This document shows positions 11,134 through 57,620 of a DNA stretch of 64,000 bases, in pieces. The notes under the pieces are model-generated. The model was not told the origin of the DNA. It saw only the letters and a program-made list of their open reading frames with translations, and did no database searches. Origin of the DNA: Betaproteobacteria bacterium (GTDB lineage: Bacteria; Pseudomonadota; Gammaproteobacteria; Burkholderiales; SG8-41); the NCBI GenBank assembly GCA_016868035.1, contig VGID01000001.1:64289-128288 (forward strand). Reading direction: 5' to 3'. Both the position numbers and the translations under genes were made by a program. Position 1 is the stretch's first letter, and every line of letters starts with the position of its first letter.

Positions 11134-11265
11134 GTGGCTCGTGACTCGTGACGGGTAAGCGGTAAGCGGCGAGCCGGAAAATCGCGAACCAGCCCGGAAC
11201 TCCGAACCCGGAACCCTGAACAGCGATCCCGGAACGCGAATTGCGCCCCGGGATTCGCGGTCCGT
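11134..11265. repeat. about 19 degenerate heptamers filling the whole hydrolase-peroxiredoxin spacer
   Basis: GTGGCTC GTGACTC GTGACGG GTAAGCG GTAAGCG GCGAGCC ... GAACTCC GAACCCG GAACCCT GAACAGC GATCCCG GAACGCG ... Also contains the hairpin GAACGCGAAT/ATTCGCGGTC. Confidence 0.75.
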
Positions 11266-13270: not shown

Positions 13271-13382
13271 TGCGTTCCGCGTTCGGGGTTCGGAGTTCGG
13301 GGTTCGGCTTCCAGTCCAGCGAACTTGAGCCTTCGAACCGACCGTATTTACCGCGTCACTTCATCAGTCGTCAGTCGTCACG
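13271..13382. repeat. 16-unit heptamer tract (GTTCGGG type changing to CAGTCGT type) overlapping a gene 3' end
   Basis: TGCGTTC CGCGTTC GGGGTTC GGAGTTC GGGGTTC GGCTTCC ... GTCACTT CATCAGT CGTCAGT CGTCACG. The last units encode R-D-D-stop of the 13371..14369 gene. Confidence 0.85.
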
Positions 13383-14515: not shown

Positions 14516-14675
14516 GAGCGCGTAACGAAATCAAGAAATATTAACCGCAGATAAACGCCGATACCCGCCGACGAAAACATAAAACCCTTTGGCTGTTCAT
14601 GGGGTTGTTGTTATCTGTGTTCATCGGCGTTCATCGGCGGTTTCAAGTTTTTTGGGTCTTTTTGATACGAGTTCT
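14516..14675 (+). mobile_element. 160-bp MITE-like element, copy A (no coding capacity)
   Basis: Gapless hand alignment to the reverse complement of 57461..57620 gives 135/160 identical. Internal decamer arms CGCAGATAAA/CGCCGATACC and inverse GTTCATCGGC x2. Bracketed by TA on both sides. Confidence 0.65.
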
Positions 14676-19324: not shown

Positions 19325-19430
19325 GCGTGATGACTGACGAGTGACGGCTGACAGCTAAAGACCGGCGCCCTTGTCATCTGCGCCGGGTTCATCGGTGTTC
19401 CTCACTCATCAGTCGTCAGTCGTCACCGCC
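19325..19430. repeat. palindromic heptamer array, GACTGAC / CAGTCGT type
   Basis: GCGTGAT GACTGAC GAGTGAC GGCTGAC AGC ... CTCACTCA TCAGTCG TCAGTCG TCACCGC. Spacer between the two ACAD genes. Confidence 0.82.
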
Positions 19431-24807: not shown

Positions 24808-24810
24808 TGG

Positions 24811-24900
24811 AAACCGCCGATGAACGCCGATGAACGCAGATGAGGCCCTACGGAGCCCGGCAGCGGAGGTATCGGCGTTTATCTGCGTTTATCTGCGGTT
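24811..24900. repeat. short decamer-arm hairpin element (related to the core of the 160-bp element)
   Basis: AAACCGCCGATGAACGCCGATGAACGCAGATGAG ... ATCGGCGTTTATCTGCGTTTATCTGCGGTT. It shares the GAAACCGCCGATGAACGC and ATCGGCGTTTATCTG-GGTT ends with 57491-57592. It fills the whole spacer between the hydro-lyase beta stop and the flavoprotein ATG. Confidence 0.8.
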
Positions 24901-24904
24901 GTGT

Positions 24905-25519
24905 TCAGCTGTTCTTGACGCCGAGGGAGGCGAGCGCGGCGGCGCGCTTCTCGCGCGCGGCCTTGTTGACCTGCGTGTAGATGCTGCCGCCGCGGCTGTC
25001 CATGGACACGAGCAGCGGGCCGAAGCCCTTCACGCGGAACTTCCACAGCGACTCGGGGTTGAGGTCGTCGAGATCCACGTCCTCGATTGCCTCGACCCAG
25101 GTGGTCTCGAGCGCCGCCGCGCCCCCGACGATCGCGAGGTAGGCGCCGCCCAAGTCCTTGAACGCGGAGAGCGAGCCCTCGGCGAGGCCGCCCTTGCCAA
25201 TGATGACGCGCACGCCGTACTGCTCCATGAGCGGGCGCGAAAAGCGCTCCATGCGCGCGCTGGTCGTGGTCCCGATACACAGCGGCGCATAGCCCGTCGG
25301 GTGCGCCTTGGACTTCTCGACCTTCCTGACGTTGGGAGCGGTGTGGATCACGGCGTGCCCGCTCATGTCGAAGCGCGTCTTGCGGCCGCGGTCGAACATG
25401 TGGATGTGGGTTCCGTCGCGGATGCCGTAGAGCGTGCCGTTCAGCGTGACGGTGTCGCCGATGCGCCATTCGCGCACCTGCTCCGCGGTGACCGGCATGT
25501 TGATGTCGTGATGCGCCAT
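24905..25519 (-). CDS. Fe-S hydro-lyase beta subunit (class I fumarate/tartrate dehydratase C-terminal type)
   Basis: ORF track, 204 aa. LRIGDTVTLNGTLYGIRD and VIIGKGG motifs. No SD before ATG 25519. Confidence 0.86.
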   Translation of the reverse strand: MAHHDINMPVTAEQVREWRIGDTVTLNGTLYGIRDGTHIHMFDRGRKTRFDMSGHAVIHTAPNVRKVEKSKAHPTGYAPLCIGTTTSARMERFSRPLMEQYGVRVIIGKGGLAEGSLSAFKDLGGAYLAIVGGAAALETTWVEAIEDVDLDDLNPESLWKFRVKGFGPLLVSMDSRGGSIYTQVNKAAREKRAAALASLGVKNS

Positions 25520-25567
25520 TCAGAATCCGTGAATGGTGAATGGTGAAACGTGAATCGAGAAAAACAT
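25520..25567 (-). CDS. candidate 15-codon coupling mini-ORF (MFFSIHVSPFTIHGF) inside the inverted heptamer array
   Basis: Strong SD AGGGAGGAG (25580-25572), ATG 25567-25565, and a TGA stop (25522-25520) that directly abuts the beta-subunit ATG (25519-25517). Hand translated. Confidence 0.3.
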   Translation of the reverse strand: MFFSIHVSPFTIHGF

Positions 25568-25616
25568 CGTGCTCCTCCCTTACGATTTGCGATTCACGAT
25601 TTACGATTAACGCTTT
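25520..25616. repeat. inverted heptamer arrays (GTGAATN / ACGATTT) filling the alpha-beta intercistronic spacer
   Basis: TCAGAAT CCGTGAA TGGTGAA TGGTGAA ACGTGAA TCGAGAA ... CTTACGA TTTGCGA TTCACGA TTTACGA TTAACGC. Confidence 0.85.
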
Positions 25617-29038: not shown

Positions 29039-29857
29039 TTATGATTCGCGCGCGCCGCGCCGCTTCAGCTTCGGACCCACCACGCCCAGGCCCACGCGCA
29101 ACGCTTCGGTCTCCATGATGTCCTGCGGCATGACGTTGGCGAGATTGACGTCGGGCCCGAATTCCTCGACCAGGAATTTCTTCATGTCCTCCGCCGCCGC
29201 GAGCGTTACGCCCTTGATCCACGGTCCCGGCAGCTCGATCAGCACTCTCGACATGTCGATCCCACGCCGCAGTCCGGCGATGAGCTTCGTCTTGGGTCTG
29301 CCGCGCTCGATCAACTCGGCCGCCTCCACCAGCACCAGCTCCGCGCCCGCCGCGAAGCAAGTCTCGGCCTGGCGCAGCAGTGCTCGCGCGTCGTTCTTCA
29401 TGTCCTTCGAGCCCACCTCGCCGAACACGGCGAGACCGCAATCGCACGCGAGGCGGATCTGCTGGCGCCGCTCCTTGTCCGAGAGCGGCACGCAGTTGTC
29501 GGAAATCTCCACCACGTCGAAGCCGACCCGCTTCGCCTCGATGAGAAACCGGCGCAGGGCACCGGCCCCGTAGGTCGCGTACACGTACTCCTGGAACTGG
29601 CCTCCGACGAACGGGCGGACGCGGTTCTTCTTGTAGAGGGCGAGCTTGCGGCGCAGGTACGCCGTGTCGTAGAGGCGGGAAGTGCCCACCGCGATCTTTG
29701 CGAGATCGATGTAGGGCCCCGCCATCTCCACCACGTCCCGCGCCTGGCCGTACGGAAGCCCGAAGTCGACCATCATGGTGAGTCCCGAGCGGCGTGGCTT
29801 GCGCTGGGTGCGCGCCCGCGGCAGCTCGACAAAGGAAAAAGGTGCTGCGCGTTTCAT
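29039..29857 (-). CDS. ComA-family (phosphosulfolactate synthase-like) protein
   Basis: In-frame part of ORF 29039..30286. ATG 29857 preceded by GAGGAA. GLTMMVDFGLP, IDLAKIAVGTSRLY, FDVVEISDN and FGEVGSKD resemble the ComA family. Confidence 0.82.
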   Translation of the reverse strand: MKRAAPFSFVELPRARTQRKPRRSGLTMMVDFGLPYGQARDVVEMAGPYIDLAKIAVGTSRLYDTAYLRRKLALYKKNRVRPFVGGQFQEYVYATYGAGALRRFLIEAKRVGFDVVEISDNCVPLSDKERRQQIRLACDCGLAVFGEVGSKDMKNDARALLRQAETCFAAGAELVLVEAAELIERGRPKTKLIAGLRRGIDMSRVLIELPGPWIKGVTLAAAEDMKKFLVEEFGPDVNLANVMPQDIMETEALRVGLGVVGPKLKRRGARES

Positions 29858-29898
29858 GTGTTCCTCACGATTGCGATGCGGCCGCCGCCCGGATCGAC

Positions 29899-30249
29899 TC
29901 AAAAAAACAGGTTCAGCGCGAAACCCAGTGCCGCCGCGATGCTCACGCCGGCAGCGGCCGCGAGCAGGCTCTTCTCCCAGTCGCGCCAGGCCAGGAATTC
30001 CAGCGCGAGCAGGCGCGCCCCGCCCGCCATGTGCGCCGACAGGAGCAGCACCAGCACGATCTCGGAGAGCTTCACCAGCGGCTGCTCGCTCCAGCGCAGG
30101 AAGGCGTCGAGCGCGGCCTCGCCCTGCAGCGCCTGGCCCAGCGCCCAGAAATGCACCGGCAGGAAGGCTGCGAGCCCCACACCCGAGATCCGGTGCATGA
30201 TGAACGCCCAGTACGCGGGGTGGTTGCGTGCGCGGAAGTCGCTTCTCAT
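29899..30249 (-). CDS. small integral-membrane protein, SdhC/FrdC-like anchor candidate
   Basis: ORF track, 116 aa. Three predicted TM helices. HRISGVGLAAFLPVHF His-containing helix. Position next to the Fe-S subunit cluster. Confidence 0.6.
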   Translation of the reverse strand: MRSDFRARNHPAYWAFIMHRISGVGLAAFLPVHFWALGQALQGEAALDAFLRWSEQPLVKLSEIVLVLLLSAHMAGGARLLALEFLAWRDWEKSLLAAAAGVSIAAALGFALNLFF

Positions 30250-30260
30250 ATGTCAGCTGC

Positions 30261-30436
30261 AATCGCCGATGAACGCCGATACACACCGATCGCCTTCGTG
30301 AAACGTGAATCGTGAATCGTGAATCGCGAAACCACCGGATCGATCGGGAAAGTCCGGGTGATCCTTCTGCGCATTACCCATTCCCCATGACCGGTTTCCA
30401 TCCGCGTTCATCGGCGTTCATCGGCGGTTTCAAATG
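30261..30436. repeat. composite repeat: decamer arm + GTGAATC heptamers + inverted decamer arm
   Basis: Left arm AATCGCCGATGAACGCCGATACACACCGAT. Then GTGAAAC GTGAATC GTGAATC GTGAATC GCGAAAC. Right arm GCGTTCATCGGCGTTCATCGGCGGTTTCA, whose TCA is the stop codon of the 30430..30786 gene. Confidence 0.8.
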
Positions 30437-30786
30437 AAGACGGCGTAGACGGCGCGAAAGCCGAGAACCGCGAGCACGATGCCGATCATCAGCACGGTCG
30501 CCTCCAGCGCCCGCCCGCGCCACTGGAACGTCTCCGAAAGCACCGTGCGCAGACCGATCGGCGCGTGGATCGCAACCGCCGCCACGAACAGCGCGTAGAA
30601 CGCGGCCCAGCCCACGCTGCCCCGGGTGCGCGAGAGGATCTCCGCGGCGGTGAGCCCACCCTGCACGGCGTAGATCATGGTGAGCAGATGCACGAGCACG
30701 CACGCGGCCAGAACCGCCGCGCTCGCCCGCTGCGCCGTCCACAGCAGAACCTGCGCGCGGACGCTGAGCTCTCCGTCACTCGTCAC
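30430..30786 (-). CDS. small integral-membrane protein, SdhD/FrdD-like anchor candidate
   Basis: ORF track, 118 aa. Three TM helices. GTG start and first codons lie inside a CGTCACT array 11 nt after the Fe-S subunit stop. Confidence 0.55.
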   Translation of the reverse strand: MTSDGELSVRAQVLLWTAQRASAAVLAACVLVHLLTMIYAVQGGLTAAEILSRTRGSVGWAAFYALFVAAVAIHAPIGLRTVLSETFQWRGRALEATVLMIGIVLAVLGFRAVYAVFI

Positions 30787-30808
30787 TCGTCACTCCGTCA
30801 CTCCGTTA
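30771..30808. repeat. CGTCACT heptamer array spanning a stop / SD / start junction
   Basis: CTC CGTCACT CGTCACT CGTCACT CCGTCACT CCGTTAC. It contains the Fe-S subunit stop (30798-30800) and the GTG start (30786-30784) of the next gene. Confidence 0.9.
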
Positions 30809-31523
30809 CCGCGAGCTCGCCGCGCAACGCGGCGAGCGCGGTGGCGCGCTTGAGCCCCGCGATCGAGGCGGTCGGAGCGAGGCCCTTGGGGCAGCGCTCG
30901 GTGCAATTCATGTGCGTGTGACACGCGTGGCATCCCGCGTCCCCGGCGACCGCCGCGAGGCGCGCCCGCCCGTCCGCGTCGCGCACGTCATTCAGCAGCG
31001 TCCACGCGCGGTTCAGCGCCGCGGGGCCGAGGTAATCGGGGTTCCATGCGACCACGTCGCACGAGCTGTAGCACACGCCGCACCCGATGCATTCGATCCC
31101 CGCATCCGCGAGCCGGCGCTGCTCCGTATCCGGGGAAACCCGCGCGAAATCGTCCTTGCGCGTGCGCGTGCCCTGGAACCGGCCGCGCGCGCGCGCCCAT
31201 TTGTCGAAGAAGGGCGTCATGTCGGCAACCAGGTCCTTGATGACGGGCAGGTTGGCGAGGGGCGCGAGCTCGAGCAAGCCGCCGGTGGCGACCTTCGCGA
31301 CGTGCGTGCGGCAAGTCCAGCGCGCGCGGCCGTTCACCGTCATCGCGCACGAGCCGCACATTCCGACTCGGCAGGCAAAGCGGTAGGAGAGCGTGGGGTC
31401 GAGGCTGCGCTGAATGTAAGTGACGACGTCGAGCACCGTCTGGCTCTCCAGCCGCGGCACGTCGAATGCCTGGAAACTTCCCTCTTCCCCGCCGCGCCAG
31501 ATCCGAACGTGGAGCGTGCTCAT
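30798..31523 (-). CDS. Sdh/Frd-type iron-sulfur subunit homologue
   Basis: C-terminal 241 codons of ORF 30798..32354, from ATG 31523 (MSTLHVRIWRG...). Cluster motifs CRVGMCGSCAM, CIGCGVCYSSC, CHACHTHMNCTERCP. Confidence 0.88.
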   Translation of the reverse strand: MSTLHVRIWRGGEEGSFQAFDVPRLESQTVLDVVTYIQRSLDPTLSYRFACRVGMCGSCAMTVNGRARWTCRTHVAKVATGGLLELAPLANLPVIKDLVADMTPFFDKWARARGRFQGTRTRKDDFARVSPDTEQRRLADAGIECIGCGVCYSSCDVVAWNPDYLGPAALNRAWTLLNDVRDADGRARLAAVAGDAGCHACHTHMNCTERCPKGLAPTASIAGLKRATALAALRGELAVTE

Positions 31524-31534
31524 GCTCGCGTTAC

Positions 31535-33244
31535 TCAATGCGCCGGGGCAGCGGCCGCGGCGGAGCCGCGCGCCACGATCGGCGCCGCGACGCGCTCGGT
31601 GAGCACGTTCACGCAAGCGGGGCGCCCCGATGTGCGCGCACGCTCGAGCGCGGCGGTCAGGTCGGCGGCGTGTGGCACGAATTCGCCGTGTGCGCCGAGC
31701 CCGGCCGCGACCTGGTCGTAGCGGGTGGGCAGCAGCTCGCAGCCGTGCGCCCGGCCGGGGCCGTAGTTGCGCAGCTGGATCTGGTGCTCCGCATTCCAGC
31801 ACGCGTCGTTGCCGACGACCGCGACGAAATCGAGATTCTCGCGCACCGCCGTGTCGAATTCGGCCAGGTGAAATCCGAAGGCGCCGTCGCCGCTCATCGC
31901 CACCACCGTTGCATCCGGGCGCGCCATGCGTGCGGCGAGCGCAAACGGCAGTGCGCTGCCGATCGAGCCGCCCTGGCCGTTGATCACGCGCGAGGGCGCG
32001 TGCACGCACGCCTGCGCCCATTGCCCGAACTCCCCGCCGTCGGAAACCAGCACGGCGTCGCGCGATCGGTCGATGAGCTGCTGCACCGCGCGTCCCACGG
32101 CGACCGGGTGCGCAGGACCCGTGCTGCCCGCGGCGAGCTTGTTCCAGGCTTCCGGCCGGAAGCGCACTGCGGCGTCCACTTCGCGCGCCCATTCGCCATG
32201 CTTCGGGCCCGCGCCGGCTGCACGCCTGGCCAGGGTTTGCGCGGCAGCAATGGTATCGGCGGCGACCGCGAGCGCGACGCGCTGCGGATCGCCCAGCGTG
32301 CGCTGCGCTCGCGCGAGCGCCTCCGCATCGGGATCGATGACGGCGAAACGGCAACCCGGAGCGACCGCGGGAGCTTGCGCAAAGCGCAGAGTGAAATCGG
32401 GTTGCTTGCCGAGAAGCAGGATGAAATCGGCCTGCGCCAGGACTTCGGCGAAGGCCCCGAGCGCAGGATCATTCACGCCGCGCGGGCTTTCCATGCACAG
32501 GACGGGGGCCGCGATGGCGGCGGCGAGGCGCTCGCGCAGCTCGCGCCCGTTCGCGTTTGCAAGCTGCGGACCGGTCAGCACCAGCGGGCGGCGCGCGCGC
32601 TTCAGCGCGGCGAGCACCGCGTCGGCGGCATCGCCTGCGAGCGCAACGGGTTGCGCCCGGAAGGCGGTTGACGGAGGCAATGCGCCCGCGCCATCCGCCA
32701 GCCTGGCCTCGAGCAGATCGAACGGAAGGCTCACGTGCACCGGACCCGGACGGCCTGATGTCGCGACACGTATGGCGCTAGCCATATCCTCGCCGAGCGC
32801 CGCGGCACTCTTCGCCGTCCACGACGCCTTGGCCACCGGGGCCGCCATGTCCGCCTGGCGCATTTCCTGGAATGATCCGAGGCCGAGCTCGGCGAGCGGC
32901 GCATGCCCGGAGAGCATGACCACCGGCGAATCCGCGGCGAGCGCCGTGTAGAGCGCGCCGACGCCGTTGGCATGGCCGGGTCCGCCCGTCAGGAGCACGA
33001 TACCCGGCTCGCCGGTGAGCCGCGCCCACGCATCCGCCATGTGCACTGCGGCGCCCTCGTGCCGGGTATGGATGATCCTTAACCGCGCATCGAGTGCCGC
33101 GTCGTAGACCGGCATCACGTGATTGCCGGACAGGGAAAAGAGATTTCGCACGCCGGCGGCCGCCAGCGCGCGCGCGAGCAGGTCGGCACCTCTCAGCGCA
33201 GCCATGTCTTTTCGGCGCAAGAGTGGCGCAACCGCGTGCGCCAC
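31535..33244 (-). CDS. thiamine-diphosphate-dependent enzyme (acetolactate synthase / oxalyl-CoA decarboxylase / Xsc superfamily)
   Basis: ORF track, 569 aa. GADLLARALAAAGV, TGGPGHANG, GSFQEM, GDGAFGF TPP-binding motif. An alternative start is ATG 33205. Confidence 0.87.
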   Translation of the reverse strand: MAHAVAPLLRRKDMAALRGADLLARALAAAGVRNLFSLSGNHVMPVYDAALDARLRIIHTRHEGAAVHMADAWARLTGEPGIVLLTGGPGHANGVGALYTALAADSPVVMLSGHAPLAELGLGSFQEMRQADMAAPVAKASWTAKSAAALGEDMASAIRVATSGRPGPVHVSLPFDLLEARLADGAGALPPSTAFRAQPVALAGDAADAVLAALKRARRPLVLTGPQLANANGRELRERLAAAIAAPVLCMESPRGVNDPALGAFAEVLAQADFILLLGKQPDFTLRFAQAPAVAPGCRFAVIDPDAEALARAQRTLGDPQRVALAVAADTIAAAQTLARRAAGAGPKHGEWAREVDAAVRFRPEAWNKLAAGSTGPAHPVAVGRAVQQLIDRSRDAVLVSDGGEFGQWAQACVHAPSRVINGQGGSIGSALPFALAARMARPDATVVAMSGDGAFGFHLAEFDTAVRENLDFVAVVGNDACWNAEHQIQLRNYGPGRAHGCELLPTRYDQVAAGLGAHGEFVPHAADLTAALERARTSGRPACVNVLTERVAAPIVARGSAAAAAPAH

Positions 33245-33259
33245 CGCGCGCCGCTTGCC

Positions 33260-34429
33260 TCAGGCACTTTCGTAGAGGCGTGTCAGCACGAACTCGCGGT
33301 GCCCGAGCGCTTCGGCGCAGGTGAGCCGGCCGTTGCACGTGCGCATCATCGCCTCGAGCAGCTCGTCGCCGCACTGGTCCATGTTCTTCTCCCGCTGCAG
33401 CAGTCCGGACACGTCGAGATCGACGTGCTCGCCCATCGTGCGGGCGGTGCGCGGATTGGCCGTCAACTTGATCACCGGCAGGATCGGGTTGCCGATCACG
33501 TTGCCCTGCCCCGTGGGGAAGAAGTGGACGACGAAGCCGGAGGCCGCGCACAGCGTCACCATCTCGGCGGCGGCGGAGGAGGAATCCATGAACCACAGGC
33601 CGGGCGCGGTCGGGGTCTCCGCCTTGTCGAGTACGCCGATCACCTTGCACTTCTTGCCGATTTTCTGGATGTTGCCGAGCGCCTTTTCCTCGATCGTGGT
33701 GAGCCCGCCGGCGATGTTGCCTTTGGTGGGCTGCGACTCCGAGAGGTCGTCGGTCTTGTGCCGCTCGACCACTTCCTGATAGCGGTTGAACATGGACATG
33801 AAGCGGTCGCGCACCTCCTGCGTCGCGCAACGATCCGCCACGATCTGCTCGCCACCCGTGATCTCGGTGGTCTCGCCGAAGCACAGCGTGACGCCCAGCG
33901 GCTCGAGCTTGTCGAACGCATTGCCAACGGTGGGATTGGAGCCGCACCCCGAGGTCGTGTCCGACTCGCCGCACTTGGTGGACACCCACAGCTCGCTCAT
34001 CGCGCACTCCTCGCGCCGCAGCTCCGAGGCCCACTGCACGTACTCCTTGGCGACCTGGGAGGCGCGCCGGATCGTATCGTGGTCGCCGTGGCCCTCGATG
34101 CCGAAGCCGGTGACGGGCTTGCCGGTCTTGGCGATCCCGTCCACCACGCGCTTGGTCCAGCCTTCCTCGATGCCGATCACCACCACCGCCGCCACGTTGG
34201 GGTTCGAGCCGGCGCCGATCAGCGTGCGGAAATGCAGGTCCAGGTCCGCGCCGAACTGCAGCCGCCCGTACGGATGCGGGATCGCCATCGCGCCCTTGAT
34301 GTTGTGCGCGACTCCCTCGCAGGCGGCGTTCGAAAGATCGTCCACCGGAAGGATGATGACGTGGTTGCGCACGCCCACGCGCCCGTTCTCGCGCCGGTAG
34401 CCCGAAAATGTCGTCTTGGCCGTAATCAT
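33260..34429 (-). CDS. UxaA-family dehydratase large subunit (SuyB-like)
   Basis: ORF 33260..34504. ATG 34429 ([23 protein letters not shown]) preceded by GAGG. Altronate-dehydratase C-terminal-type sequence. Confidence 0.87.
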
Positions 34430-34440
34430 TGCAATGCCTC

Positions 34441-34475
34441 GTGATGAATAGTGGGTAATGGGTGATCCATGACGG
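34441..34475. repeat. degenerate heptamers, GTGATGN type
   Basis: GTGATGA ATAGTGG GTAATGG GTGATCC ATGACGG, between the SAF and UxaA genes. Confidence 0.55.
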
Positions 34476-34511
34476 GCACGCGTGGCTCTGCCGCGCGTGC
34501 GCACGCGTCCG

Positions 34512-34793
34512 TTACCACCGCTTGGTCTTGATGTTGTGCACGTGCGCGTGCTCGCCGAGCCTGATGTCGGCGACCGCCCGCCCGATGTCGTGGCCGTACT
34601 TGATCACGGTGTCGCCTTTCTTGATCTCCTTGGTGGCGAGCTTGTGGCCGATCGGAACGTCGTTCAACGCCTTCACCTTGATGGTCGCGTCGCCTTCCAT
34701 CACCCAGCCGGTGAGCTCCTGCCCGGCCTTGACGCCCTCGACGACGACGACGCCGACGGTATCTTTCTTGTCGTGAACCAGAACGTGGATCAT
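34512..34793 (-). CDS. SAF-domain small subunit (UxaA N-terminal / SuyA-like)
   Basis: ORF 34512..34817. ATG 34793 ([18 protein letters not shown]...) preceded by [34 protein letters not shown] pattern. Confidence 0.8.
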
Positions 34794-34886
34794 CTCCTCT
34801 CCTCGCAGCAAAAACACCCGCAGCGGCGGTGCCTGACGAAGCTCGACGCCGAAGAACTGCAGGCGGGTTGGTCCAGGGAAGGCCTA

Positions 34887-36551
34887 TTATAGCTTCGCAA
34901 GCTCGCGCCGTGCGAGTTCGAGCTGGGCGGCGTCCTTGGAATTGCGCAGCAGCCACTGGAACTGGGCCCGCGCGTCCTCCCTGTAGCCCGCGCGGGCGAG
35001 ACTGAGAGCGGCCGCGAGCCGCGCCTGCAGCTCCAGCGCATCCGGGACGCGCGACTCGTTGAGCAGGGCCGAGCGCATATAGTAGTCCGCCGCGAACGGG
35101 AACTGTCCCGTTGCCTGCGCGATGCGCCCGAGCGCGAGCAGGATCTCGCGCCGGTGGGCCGTCGCGGCGAGCGGCAGCAGGACTTCGAGCGCTGCATCCG
35201 CGTGATCGAGCCGCCCCGCACCGAGCATCTCCTGGGCGAGGACGACGGCCCGTTGCATGGCCTCGGTCGCGAGCATCCGGCGTCCTTCCGCGGCGCGGCG
35301 CAACGCGACCATCGCCGCCTTCGCGTTGCCCGCGCGCCAGTGCACGGTGGCGAGCCGCACCTGCCATTCGTCGGCGGCGGCTCCAGCGGGCTCGGGCAAC
35401 CCCTCCCAGAACCGGGCGGCCAGCGCCGGCTCCGCGCGTGCTTCGGCCATCGCGCCCAGCCGATAGCGGGCCTGCGCCCCGAGCGCGTCGGGATCGATCC
35501 GCCCGTGCTCGAACAGGCGCACGGCTGCGAGATCGAGCTTCGCCTTCTCGAGCGAGAACGCGAGCTGCAGCTGCGCGTTCTCGCGCGTCGCGGGAATCAT
35601 CCCCCGCTGCGCGACATGCGCGAAGAAACCGCGTGCGAGCGCCGGCTCGGTGGCGAGACGCCGCGCGCCGAACTCGTACCACGCCGCGTCGTCCCCCGTC
35701 AGCAGCTGGTTCTGGTTGGCCGCGTCCTGCGCGCCGGCGAAGTAGCCCAGCCACAGCTCGCGCGCGCGGCTCTCCGCCTGCGCGCCGGGCGCCGCGAGCT
35801 GCAGCAGCTGCTCCATCGCCTCGATGCGCACGGGCGCGTTGCCCGTGCGCGCCGCGGCCTCAACGATAACGCGCCAGTGCCCGCGGGCGCCGCCCTTCGC
35901 GAGCTGCGCGCGCGCGTGGGCGATGGCTGTTTCCGGGGCGAGCAGATTGGCATGCAACAGCAGGAGCTGCTTCGCCGGGCTCCCGTCCTCCAGGTTCGAG
36001 AGCCAGCTCGCCGCCTCGCGCGCCATGCCGAGCTCGATGAGCGCCTCGACGAAGCGCGCGGCGAGCGCGCGCTCCAGAGGCGCGTAGTCCTGCGCGTAGC
36101 GCAGCATCGCGCGGAAGACCGCGTCGCCGTTGCGGTCCGCCATGTAGGCTTCGATGACGAGCAGGCGCAAAGCGCGCACCTCCTCCGGCGAGGAGTCAAG
36201 CTGCCACAGCGCCCGCGCGGCATGCGCGCGCGCCGCCGCCCCCTGCCCGAGCGCGATCCCGGCGCGCGCGGCGAACGCCAGCGATTCGCGCAGTTCCAGA
36301 ACCGGCATTTCCGCCGGCAGCGCGGCCGCGCGCGCGAGCACCTCGCGCTCGCGCCCGAGCGCGAGCAGCAGCTTCAACCGCAAGGCTTCCCACGCTGGCC
36401 AGCGCGGGTCCTTCGGCTCGCGCGGCTGCAGCTGTTCGACGCGGTTCAGCGCGAGCCGGACCGCGCCGCCCTGCTCGAGCTGGCGCGCGGTCTCCAGCGC
36501 CGAGGCGACACCGGCGCACGCCAGACAGATCAGCACGAGCAATATCCGCAT
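34887..36551 (-). CDS. secreted Ala/Leu/Arg-rich all-helical (TPR-like) hypothetical protein
   Basis: ORF track, 554 aa. Signal peptide MRILLVLICLACAGVASA. No family recognised. Confidence 0.6.
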   Translation of the reverse strand: MRILLVLICLACAGVASALETARQLEQGGAVRLALNRVEQLQPREPKDPRWPAWEALRLKLLLALGREREVLARAAALPAEMPVLELRESLAFAARAGIALGQGAAARAHAARALWQLDSSPEEVRALRLLVIEAYMADRNGDAVFRAMLRYAQDYAPLERALAARFVEALIELGMAREAASWLSNLEDGSPAKQLLLLHANLLAPETAIAHARAQLAKGGARGHWRVIVEAAARTGNAPVRIEAMEQLLQLAAPGAQAESRARELWLGYFAGAQDAANQNQLLTGDDAAWYEFGARRLATEPALARGFFAHVAQRGMIPATRENAQLQLAFSLEKAKLDLAAVRLFEHGRIDPDALGAQARYRLGAMAEARAEPALAARFWEGLPEPAGAAADEWQVRLATVHWRAGNAKAAMVALRRAAEGRRMLATEAMQRAVVLAQEMLGAGRLDHADAALEVLLPLAATAHRREILLALGRIAQATGQFPFAADYYMRSALLNESRVPDALELQARLAAALSLARAGYREDARAQFQWLLRNSKDAAQLELARRELAKL

Positions 36552-51083: not shown

Positions 51084-52076
51084 CTAGGCTGCCCAAGCGG
51101 CGCGCATCATGCTGATGCCGTGCGCGCCGGACCGCCACGCGGTTTCCAGGTCCGGCGGATTGAGCCCCCCGAGCGCATACACCGGCAACGGATAGTCGCG
51201 CACCATCGCGGCGAACCGCTTCCACCCCATGCCCCGCGCTTCCGGATGGCTGGGCGTGGGCAGGACCGGGCCCAGCACCACGAGATCCACACCGAGCGCC
51301 GCTGCGCGCGCGAGTTCCTCCGCGTCATGACACGAAGCGCCGACGAGCTCGAGCTCCGGCCTCGCCCCGATCCGCGCAAGCTGCGCGGCGGTGAGATGCA
51401 CGCCGTCCGCGCCCACCCGCTGCGCGAGCGCCGCATCGGCGTTCACCAGCACCCGCGCGCCGCTCGCGTGCGCAAGGCGCACGACTTCCGCAGCCAGGCC
51501 GCGCAGCTCGTCCGGGGCGAGGCTCTTTTCGCGCACCTGCAGCAGCTTGAGGCCCCGATCGAGAGCGCGCTGCAGCCGCCGCAGGAGCTCGGTCCGGCCG
51601 AGCGCCGCGGCATTGGTGATGCCATAGACCGGGGGGAGCCTCAGCGCGCGCAATATCGGTGCGTTCGCGGGCAGCAGCGGGCCCACGTCCACCGCCGCCG
51701 GCGACTGCCATACAAAACGCTGGTTTTCCCTGCCGTGGAGCTCGCCGGACCAGCGCATCACGCGGAAGAAGCGCAGCCGCACCGCGGCGTGCGCGTAGTC
51801 GTAATCGCGGGTGAGCCATGGGTGGGCGCTTTTCACCTCGATGCCGAGCTCCTCGTGCAGCTCGCGCGTGAGCGCTGCGAGCGGCGTCTCGTCGGCCTCG
51901 ACCTTGCCGCCGGGAAATTCCCAGTATCCGCCGTAGGGCTTGCCCGCCGGACGCTGCCCGAGCAGGAACGTGCCATCCTCGCGCAGGACGACGGCCGCGG
52001 CGACCTCCACTCTCGAGGGGGATGAATGACGGGCGACGGGTGACGGGTCCGCGGCGGCGTCGAAATTGCTGCTCAT
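51084..52076 (-). CDS. Nudix (MutT-like) hydrolase fused to a thiamine-phosphate-synthase-like (ThiE) domain
   Basis: ORF 51084..52151. Nudix box GGKVEADETPLAALTRELHEELGI. C-terminal TIM-barrel ThiE-like region (GADGVHL, VYALGG). The start is uncertain (GTG 52151, ATG 52076 or GTG 52010). Confidence 0.83.
   Translation of the reverse strand: MSSNFDAAADPSPVARHSSPSRVEVAAAVVLREDGTFLLGQRPAGKPYGGYWEFPGGKVEADETPLAALTRELHEELGIEVKSAHPWLTRDYDYAHAAVRLRFFRVMRWSGELHGRENQRFVWQSPAAVDVGPLLPANAPILRALRLPPVYGITNAAALGRTELLRRLQRALDRGLKLLQVREKSLAPDELRGLAAEVVRLAHASGARVLVNADAALAQRVGADGVHLTAAQLARIGARPELELVGASCHDAEELARAAALGVDLVVLGPVLPTPSHPEARGMGWKRFAAMVRDYPLPVYALGGLNPPDLETAWRSGAHGISMMRAAWAA
52021..52050. repeat. heptamer run, GACGGGT type, inside the annotated 5' end of the Nudix-ThiE gene
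   Basis: GATGAAT GACGGGC GACGGGT GACGGGT. Confidence 0.6.
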
Positions 52077-52170
52077 CGTTCCCGAGTCGCGTTCACGGCG
52101 TGACTTGCGGTTCGCGCGTCGCGTAGCGGCGCGGCTATCCTCAGCCGCCACTCGTCACCCATCGCTGCGG

Positions 52171-53055: not shown

Positions 53056-53081
53056 GCCGGGATTCTAACCGCCAAAGCACC

Positions 53082-53199
53082 GGAGAGGCGATAGAAGAGA
53101 GGGGATAGGCGTCAAACCCGGGCGACTGCATCGATGCCTTGCCCCTCTCTCCTCTCTCCTCTCTCCTCTCTCCTCTCTCCTCTATCGTCTATCGTCAGG
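53082..53199. repeat. purine arm + pyrimidine heptamer array (CCTCTCT x5, CCTCTAT, CGTCTAT, CGTCAGG)
   Basis: Left arm GGAGAGG CGATAGA AGAGAGG GGATAGG. Right arm 53144-53199, counted unit by unit. The last unit contains the argJ stop (53195-53197). Confidence 0.9.
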
Positions 53200-57460: not shown

Positions 57461-57620
57461 AGAGCGCGTGTCAAAAAGGCCCAAAAAGCTCGAAACCGCC
57501 GATGAACGCAGATACACGCAGATAACAACAAGCCTGTGAACACCCAAAACGCTTTTTGTTTTCGTCGGCGTGTATCGGCGTTTATCTGTGGTTAACATTT
57601 CTTGATTTTGCTACCGGCTC
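57461..57620 (-). mobile_element. 160-bp MITE-like element, copy B (inverted relative to copy A), in the secA leader
   Basis: See copy A. It starts 15 nt upstream of the secA ATG, ends 1 nt from the M23 terminator, and is bracketed by TA dinucleotides. Confidence 0.65.

Follow-up and report, generated by a model that had tools for sequence, protein, structure and literature searches.

Translational coupling through overlapping stop and start codons, at ATGA, GTGA or TGATG junctions, is a familiar feature of bacterial operons. An excess of heptanucleotide SSRs is also known from bacteria, and PMC4679880 and PMC4692102, which summarise Mrazek et al. 2007, propose polymerase slippage as its cause and place Burkholderia (Betaproteobacteria) among the genomes richest in such repeats. 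It is likewise established that these SSRs are intergenic, form inverted pairs and change rapidly in length (PMC4679880, PMC4692102). The TAACTGA direct repeats of marine Beggiatoaceae occur in 2–6 copies with stops in all three frames; in 13 cases the repeat overlaps the preceding gene's stop codon, and the downstream start is within a few nt (PMC4679880). In the 5'-UTR of H. influenzae hmw1 and hmw2, 11–63 perfect heptamer units give graded phase variation of an adhesin, a process that needs RNase III (PMC12721329), and in the V. cholerae ctxAB promoter the copy number of heptamer TTTTGAT repeats correlates with promoter activity (bioRxiv 10.1101/2021.05.14.444153).

The locus described here is a heptamer array at an operon junction. 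It lies in a 64-kb window, by which we mean the whole stretch of DNA that was analysed. Its units run head to tail, are in the 5–11-nt size range and make up an array longer than chance would give, as in a heptanucleotide SSR.

The array and its operon junction

Read on the minus strand from 30810 to 30771, the array is GGTAACGGAGTGACGGAGTGACGAGTGACGAGTGACGGAG, 40 nt of imperfect tandem repetition (Table 1). The initial annotation had quoted this string correctly, with coordinates (30771–30808) that fall 2 nt short, and had taken the unit to be a uniform 7 nt, which is not borne out: the units are, in order, GGTAACGGA (degenerate), GTGACGGA, GTGACGA, GTGACGA and GTGACGGAG, with sizes of 8, 8, 7, 7 and 8 nt. 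TRF gives a period of 7, 4.8 copies, 93% matches, 6% indels and a score of 58, and perfect repetition is confined to about 2.4 copies each of ACGGAGTG and GAGTGAC.

The unit is an intercistronic signal, a purine-rich SD-like GAG or GGAG followed by overlapping GTG and TGA (GTGA). Since 7 mod 3 = 1, three units in a row offer stops and starts in every frame: TGA is found at 30800, 30792, 30785 and 30778 and GTG at 30801, 30793, 30786 and 30779, covering all three frames in each case. Twenty-five nt of the array fall within two coding sequences, the trait that distinguishes it from the other arrays of the window.

Table 1. Coordinates of the array, its translation signals and the neighbouring genes
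Feature	Position	Strand	Evidence
Imperfect tandem array	30771–30810	-	sequence, TRF, excess over shuffles
TGA stop of the SdhB-like Fe-S gene, in the first intact unit	30798–30800	-	sequence, translation
GGAG, Shine-Dalgarno-like, 6 nt 5' of the GTG, from an 8-nt unit	30793–30796	-	sequence
TGA in the membrane-subunit frame, two codons 5' of the start	30790–30792	-	sequence
GTG start of the 118-aa Sdh_cyt subunit, in the penultimate unit	30784–30786	-	sequence, homologues
Second TGA in the Fe-S frame (TGA CGG AGT GAC GAG TGA)	30783–30785	-	sequence
SdhB-like 2Fe-2S/4Fe-4S subunit gene, 241 aa	30798–31523	-	PF13085, PF13183; TIGR00384, 194 bits
118-aa Sdh_cyt membrane subunit gene	30430–30786	-	PF01127 (weak but significant); 4292 homologues
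TPP-dependent enzyme gene, directly 5' of the Fe-S gene	31535–33244	-	PF02776/PF00205/PF02775
Second Sdh_cyt subunit gene, 116 aa	29899–30249	-	PF01127, TIGR02970

Sequence and translations confirm the earlier proposal that several signals come from the array: the Fe-S stop codon, an SD-like GGAG, and the GTG start and first six codons (M-T-S-D-G-E) of the membrane subunit. The Fe-S protein ends in ...LRGELAVTE-TGA, and the degenerate first unit codes for the last four residues, AVTE. Four codons past this TGA comes a second one, which overlaps the GTG start as GTGA and serves as a back-up stop. The initial annotation had also stated that the membrane subunit has no alternative start, and this holds: between the in-frame TGA at 30792 and the invariant residues R10, Q12 and W16, no ATG, GTG or TTG is present besides the GTG at 30786, and as that TGA closes the frame, the GTG must be the start. 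GC3 phase analysis supports both reading frames at the junction.

The two genes lie on the same strand with a stop-to-start gap of 11 nt and a GGAG near the end of the upstream gene, the layout of a translationally coupled pair; from this geometry alone we infer coupling at the junction. There is no inverted partner of the array within 500 nt, so that it is not a hairpin arm in its present state, and the predicted RNA structure of the 141-nt junction is not significant (z = -0.77). The predicted cost of opening the initiation region ranges from 7.6 to 10.3 kcal/mol over variants of -8 to +14 nt and follows no trend, which is weak evidence either way. An Rfam scan of the whole window returned no family at the gathering score, and no promoter-like or terminator-like sites were found between 29800 and 31700.

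By their Pfam and TIGR matches, the two flanking genes supply the Fe-S subunit and membrane anchor of a succinate:quinone oxidoreductase/fumarate reductase. No SdhA/FrdA-type flavoprotein was found among the nine cluster proteins scanned. The label of a respiratory-type operon, given to the locus at the outset, is only partly apt, because it is a TPP enzyme and not a flavoprotein that lies directly 5' of the Fe-S gene; the Fe-S and membrane subunits fit the label, and the cluster is not a classical respiratory Sdh/Frd operon. The same TPP–Fe-S adjacency is found in two relatives (L088 and L092). Other members of the cluster are a split UxaA/GD_AH dehydratase, a ComA-like phosphosulfolactate synthase homologue, a sulfatase and TctC.

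In the minus-strand cluster at 29039–34817, as in L001, L088 and L092, the SdhB-like protein and two SdhC/D-like proteins directly follow the TPP enzyme, whose best matches, all below the cut-off, are acetolactate synthase, 2-hydroxyacyl-CoA lyase and sulfoacetaldehyde acetyltransferase. The cluster may encode an uncharacterised TPP-enzyme:quinone oxidoreductase in organosulfonate metabolism. Beyond it, an ORF of 554 aa (34887–36551, minus strand) has a GC3 of 0.90, a strong coding signal, an N-terminal signal-peptide-like segment and an alanine/leucine-rich, helical-repeat-like sequence; no Pfam or NCBIfam match was obtained for it. This ORF was considered as a flavoprotein or SdhA substitute and rejected, since without a family match it looks like a secreted helical-repeat protein.

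Heptamer arrays across the window

Period 7 is by far the most frequent TRF period in the window. Against a null model of 30 dinucleotide shuffles of the window, there are 32 period-7 arrays with a score of at least 30, where the shuffles give a mean of 3.8 and a maximum of 8; at a score of at least 40 the counts are 12 and 0.03, and at a score of at least 50 they are 6 and 0. The 40-nt length of the focal array is short, and nothing else suggests that it could be chance low-complexity sequence or an assembly artefact. The first was rejected because no shuffle gave a period-7 array scoring at least 50, and the second because the same array is present in ten contigs from ten samples; with orthologous arrays in about 30 lineages, either explanation can be dismissed almost outright. 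The ten contigs, all from the window's strain (ENA, Logan, JGI), are identical through the array and show 0 mismatches over 0.9–6.4 kb, except for three terminal bases of one contig.

Twenty-three of the 32 arrays do not overlap a crude gene set that spans 78% of the window, a count that is approximate because the crude GC3 gene finder misplaced some starts. More than 20 different heptamer units are used by these arrays. The two-unit motif GTGACGAGTGACG, with at most 2 mismatches, occurs 15 times in the window, a six-fold excess over the 2.5 expected, and none of 100 shuffles reached 15. Matches of this type or of the GTGACGA type lie at other gene ends, at 13369, 19414/19327 and 52146/52033, and also at 11140. 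Numerous arrays sit directly behind stop codons, and numerous arrays form inverted pairs of the form (X)n-loop-(reverse complement of X)n, that is, hairpins. Intergenic heptamer arrays thus make up a genome-wide population, of which the focal array is one example and not a singular device.

Most intergenic heptamer arrays of the window are inverted pairs behind stop codons (2386–2465, 13281–13381, 19327–19426, 25529–25616, 52033–52158 and 53060–53196) and make long hairpins with stems periodic at 7 nt. Several arrays start at a stop codon or within a few nt of one (13364–13381, 19409–19426, 25580–25616, 53181–53196 and 11134–11152), and their units (CGACTGA, ATCGTAA, CGATAGA and GTGACTC) hold a stop triplet on the coding strand, which suggests that stop-codon contexts may commonly seed arrays in this genome.

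A different repeat is also dispersed in the window, a palindromic element with four copies in the 64 kb (14541–14645, 24810–24905, 30253–30437 and 57493–57592), whose arms are tandem decamers, CGCCGATGAA and CGCAGATAAA, and whose conserved termini are GAAACCGCCGATGAACGC...GCGTTCATCGGCGGTTTC. The 180-nt spacer that parts the two Sdh_cyt genes is full of repeats: the copy at 30253–30437 fills it and has a (TCGTGAA)5 array inside. Six short Logan contigs of the window's strain pass through the heptamer array and all break within this decamer element, as expected of a genome-wide repeat.

Junction variation, slippage and its consequences

Orthologous loci were fetched from GTDB genomes (80), from JGI metagenomes (80) and by exact protein look-up (18). 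The JGI metagenome scan returned no relative closer than 77% identity, and the closest ones came from the exact-protein look-ups. Nearly all of the loci are from MAGs of uncultured Betaproteobacteria/Burkholderiales. About 134 junctions could be classified: 33–44 are compact, with a GTGA or ATGA stop/start overlap and an Fe-S protein that ends in ...KGEL* without an array tail; 32–33 are direct TGAYG-type arrays; and 54–56 are long spacers of 40–290 nt, mostly holding inverted heptamer arrays.

The abundance of the last class, together with the inverted pairs elsewhere in the window and the GTGACGA-type arrays at the gene ends listed above, raises the question of whether the focal array is a binding platform for an RNA- or DNA-binding factor (CsrA/S1/Csp-type) at GTGACGR/GGA motifs, or the surviving first arm of a hairpin. 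A post-transcriptional regulator has in fact been proposed for the TAACTGA repeats (PMC4679880). The use of more than 20 different units across the window argues against a single sequence-specific binder, and the lack of an inverted partner within 500 nt argues against a hairpin arm. We consider either role quite improbable.

Both ORFs are intact at all 29 direct-array junctions that were tabulated, with stop and start inside the array. TGA occurs in three frames in 27 of them, the gap between the genes ranges from a 4-nt overlap to 52 nt, and the number of TGA-bearing units ranges from 2 to 12. The units are also visible in the proteins. Among the 120 best homologues, N-termini are either of an array type (MTSDGK.., MSDG.., MSDE.., MRDE..) or short (MN[VIT]R..), and these N-terminal extensions, like the Fe-S tails ..GDG, ..GDE, ..SDE, ..GDAVTK, ..SDAVTE and ..AVTE, are translated units. 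The codon for Ser3 is always AGT, which makes up 2.5% of the Ser codons in the window's genes, so that the apparent peptide conservation is identity of the array at the nucleotide level. With numerous homologues ending in ...KGEL* and starting with MN[VIT]R, the array-coded tails are dispensable.

Some junctions carry a single unit. L035 has CTGTGACGAGC, and L068 has GAAGGATGAAC where L019 and L053 have (GAAGGAT)n. These states resemble precursors and support an origin of the arrays by tandem duplication of the overlap motif.

Three other loci have an AT-rich segment directly 5' of the Sdh_cyt start (at about 2900–3000 in L086, 1–50 in L089 and 1–290 in L090), in which GACAGGATT and AATCCTGTC are repeated and inverted. 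In L086 it follows the Fe-S stop; L089 and L090 are short contigs in which no upstream Fe-S gene was found, and two or three GTGACGR units remain there beside the Sdh_cyt start. The segment looks like a different small inserted element.

The consensus assemblies of the window's strain are all identical at the array, and copy number does vary between related genomes at the same locus. Four contigs of a related species from four JGI samples (L111, L132, L114 and L118), with flanks 96–100% identical, have 6, 7, 8 and 9 perfect GGGATGA units, respectively, while the end of the Fe-S protein (..KGDI*) and the start of the membrane subunit (an ATG in the penultimate unit, giving MRDERLSVR) are unchanged. 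The closest relative of the window (L174/L175), at 95.5–98% nucleotide identity in the flanking coding DNA, has a wholly different, hairpin-type junction: its Fe-S protein ends in ..LKGEL*, a 93-nt spacer with (GATGAAC)/(GTTCATC)4 arms follows, and the next gene starts with ATG AAT ACG. Over 1500 nt downstream, L138 and L142 are identical except for one base; the junction of about 150 nt has about 59 differences, and both of its hairpin arms change unit together, from AATGATG/TCATCAT in one to GGGATGAG/CTCATCC in the other.

The same pattern holds in wider comparisons. Where gene bodies are at least 99% identical, spacer length differs in 8 of 18 pairs, and at 90–95% identity the class of junction differs in 24 of 62. 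Pairs in which both junctions are compact always have the same length among the closest pairs (gene bodies at least 93% identical), and the length differs in 37 of 65 such pairs when all those at 85% identity or more are taken. Intergenic heptamer arrays, the focal one among them, are in excess throughout the lineage and are replaced much more quickly than coding sequence, and the junction is, on these comparisons, a hot spot of variation that is neutral for the proteins.

A 119-nt segment at the window's junction has its best match in L092 (85.7%), to which the remaining gene is 75.8% identical. Recombinational import of the junction was considered and is not relied upon, the segment being mostly low-complexity array and highly conserved codons.

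The consequences of slippage at the focal array were followed by simulating all duplications and deletions between perfect neighbouring units (±7 for GAGTGAC, ±8 for ACGGAGTG, +14 and +16). In every in-register event, the Fe-S protein still ends in ...AVTE* and the membrane protein still starts with MTSDGELSVR, because the first intact unit carries the stop and the penultimate unit carries the start. The only changes are in the gap between them, from 11 nt to 3, 4, 18, 19, 25 or 27 nt, and in the GGAG, which shifts from 6 nt to 7–13 nt before the start. The start is lost only when 8 nt are deleted out of register within the 7-mer part, and slippage does not produce such deletions.

These results bear on the main proposal of the initial annotation, that the array is a potential slipped-strand switch, in which one unit more or less would change the Fe-S gene at its C-terminus or stop and the next gene in its frame or SD–start geometry. 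The effect on SD–start geometry is real, as the gap of 3–27 nt and the moving GGAG show. Simulation and natural variants contradict the effect on stop and frame. In relatives the length of the junction is highly variable, with both ORFs kept in all tabulated arrays.

An on/off contingency switch, driven by slipped-strand mispairing that shifts the Fe-S stop or the frame or start of the membrane subunit, is suggested by an array that spans both coding ends with a period that is not a multiple of 3. However, unit gain or loss does not switch a gene off, either among the in-register products, which all retain both ORFs and their protein sequences, or in natural arrays of 2–12 TGA-bearing units. 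The long perfect tract of phase-variable repeats is also missing, the 8/8/7/7/8-nt units having only about 2.4 perfect copies per type. The ten consensus assemblies of the strain show no variation, and what would be switched is an enzyme of metabolism rather than a surface structure. We regard such a switch as very improbable.

An expression rheostat, the main rival reading, would make use of what slippage does change. Unit number would then tune the ratio of Fe-S to membrane subunit through the stop-to-start distance and the position of the SD, giving graded heritable variation. The range of simulated gaps and GGAG positions is compatible with this, as is the 6/7/8/9-unit series in near-identical contigs of a relative, and there are precedents in hmw, where heptamer SSRs grade expression (PMC12721329), and in ctxAB, where copy number tracks promoter activity (bioRxiv 10.1101/2021.05.14.444153). 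However, the focal array is imperfect and identical in ten assemblies of the strain, an SD-like element in every unit makes the spacing partly self-correcting, and the predicted opening cost varies unsystematically. Close relatives thrive with totally different junction types, and both products are part of the same complex, where a variable ratio of subunits would bring no obvious advantage. Tuning of this kind seems rather unlikely to us.

What the array probably represents is a near-neutral, fast-evolving microsatellite built from the stop/SD/start signal and read by ordinary SD-dependent or coupled initiation. Its origin would be an ancestral stop/start overlap of 4 nt, GTGA, that was duplicated in tandem. 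The Fe-S gene stops at the first in-frame TGA, thereby gaining a four-residue array-coded tail, and the membrane subunit starts at the last GTG without an in-frame TGA downstream, thereby gaining a six-residue array-coded N-terminus. Gain or loss of units between these two anchors changes the length of the spacer only. Translation of the membrane subunit would proceed either by ordinary SD-dependent initiation or by termination–reinitiation coupling, and the array would persist since its design makes slippage nearly neutral, not through switching.

As a counterpoint to near-neutrality, the same type of unit persists at the junction in numerous lineages with proteins only 70–80% identical. The invariable AGT codon at Ser3 shows nucleotide-level constraint or continual homogenisation, and selection for the motif could be involved. 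The copy-number polymorphism in the relative would also be expected of a tuning element, and the array may tune translational coupling.

A more far-reaching idea is that this lineage of uncultured Burkholderiales makes and rapidly replaces its intergenic and intercistronic spacers as heptamer-array cassettes seeded from local stop/SD/start signals. Direct arrays would serve as frame-independent stop–SD–start adaptors, as here, and inverted arrays as hairpins whose two arms change unit together; the driving force would be a mutational mechanism, either dedicated or strongly biased, and selection would set the coupling via copy number. If so, the focal array would be one visible outcome of a system, not described before, by which operon junctions evolve. 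This we think unlikely.

Comparison with known repeat systems

On the reading of a near-neutral microsatellite, a non-triplet repeat across two coding ends is harmless if its unit combines stop, SD and start, with slippage buffered. Contrary to intuition, a repeat of non-triplet length at the boundary of a gene need not be a switch. Odd N-termini that look conserved (MTSDG.., MSDE.., MRDE..) and tails (..GDAVTK, ..SDE) in thousands of metagenomic homologues are accounted for as well: they are array-encoded and not functional peptide motifs. The lineage offers a natural series for the evolution of heptamer microsatellites, from compact overlap to direct array to inverted-array hairpin, along with a 6–9-copy polymorphism, and it would lend itself to testing whether the spacing between cistrons tunes the stoichiometry of the subunits.

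The arrays resemble the intergenic heptanucleotide SSRs, including the cyanobacterial STRR and the Xanthomonas GGGAATC repeats, in their period of 7, their excess, their intergenic position, their inverted pairs and the variation of their length and sequence between close relatives at the same intergenic site. The focal array differs in that it lies in an 11-nt operon junction and overlaps both coding sequences, and in that its unit consists of translation signals. We know of no description of heptamer arrays with more than 20 different units in MAGs of uncultured Burkholderiales.

The hmw arrays also lie in transcribed sequence 5' of a start codon and vary naturally in copy number. They pair with a complementary region as a long hairpin, in which they resemble the hairpin-type junctions of the relatives, whereas the focal array has five imperfect units and no complementary partner. 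Ordinary overlap coupling has the same co-oriented cistrons, the SD inside the end of the upstream gene and the GTGA, and 33–44 of the orthologous junctions are exactly of this kind; in the focal array, by contrast, the coupling motif is tandemly multiplied, which makes the signals redundant in every frame.

Of the specific systems, the TAACTGA repeat comes closest: like the focal array, it is a direct heptamer repeat with stops in three frames that overlaps the upstream stop and adjoins the downstream start. However, the TAACTGA unit has neither start codon nor SD, and this one unit dominates its genome. The focal unit, GTGACG(G)A, holds a GTG (ATG in relatives) and GAG or GGAG, the downstream gene initiates inside the array, and numerous units coexist. 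An excess of heptamer SSRs is already known; what is new here is not a mechanism but a unit that also carries start and SD, with the downstream gene starting inside the array.
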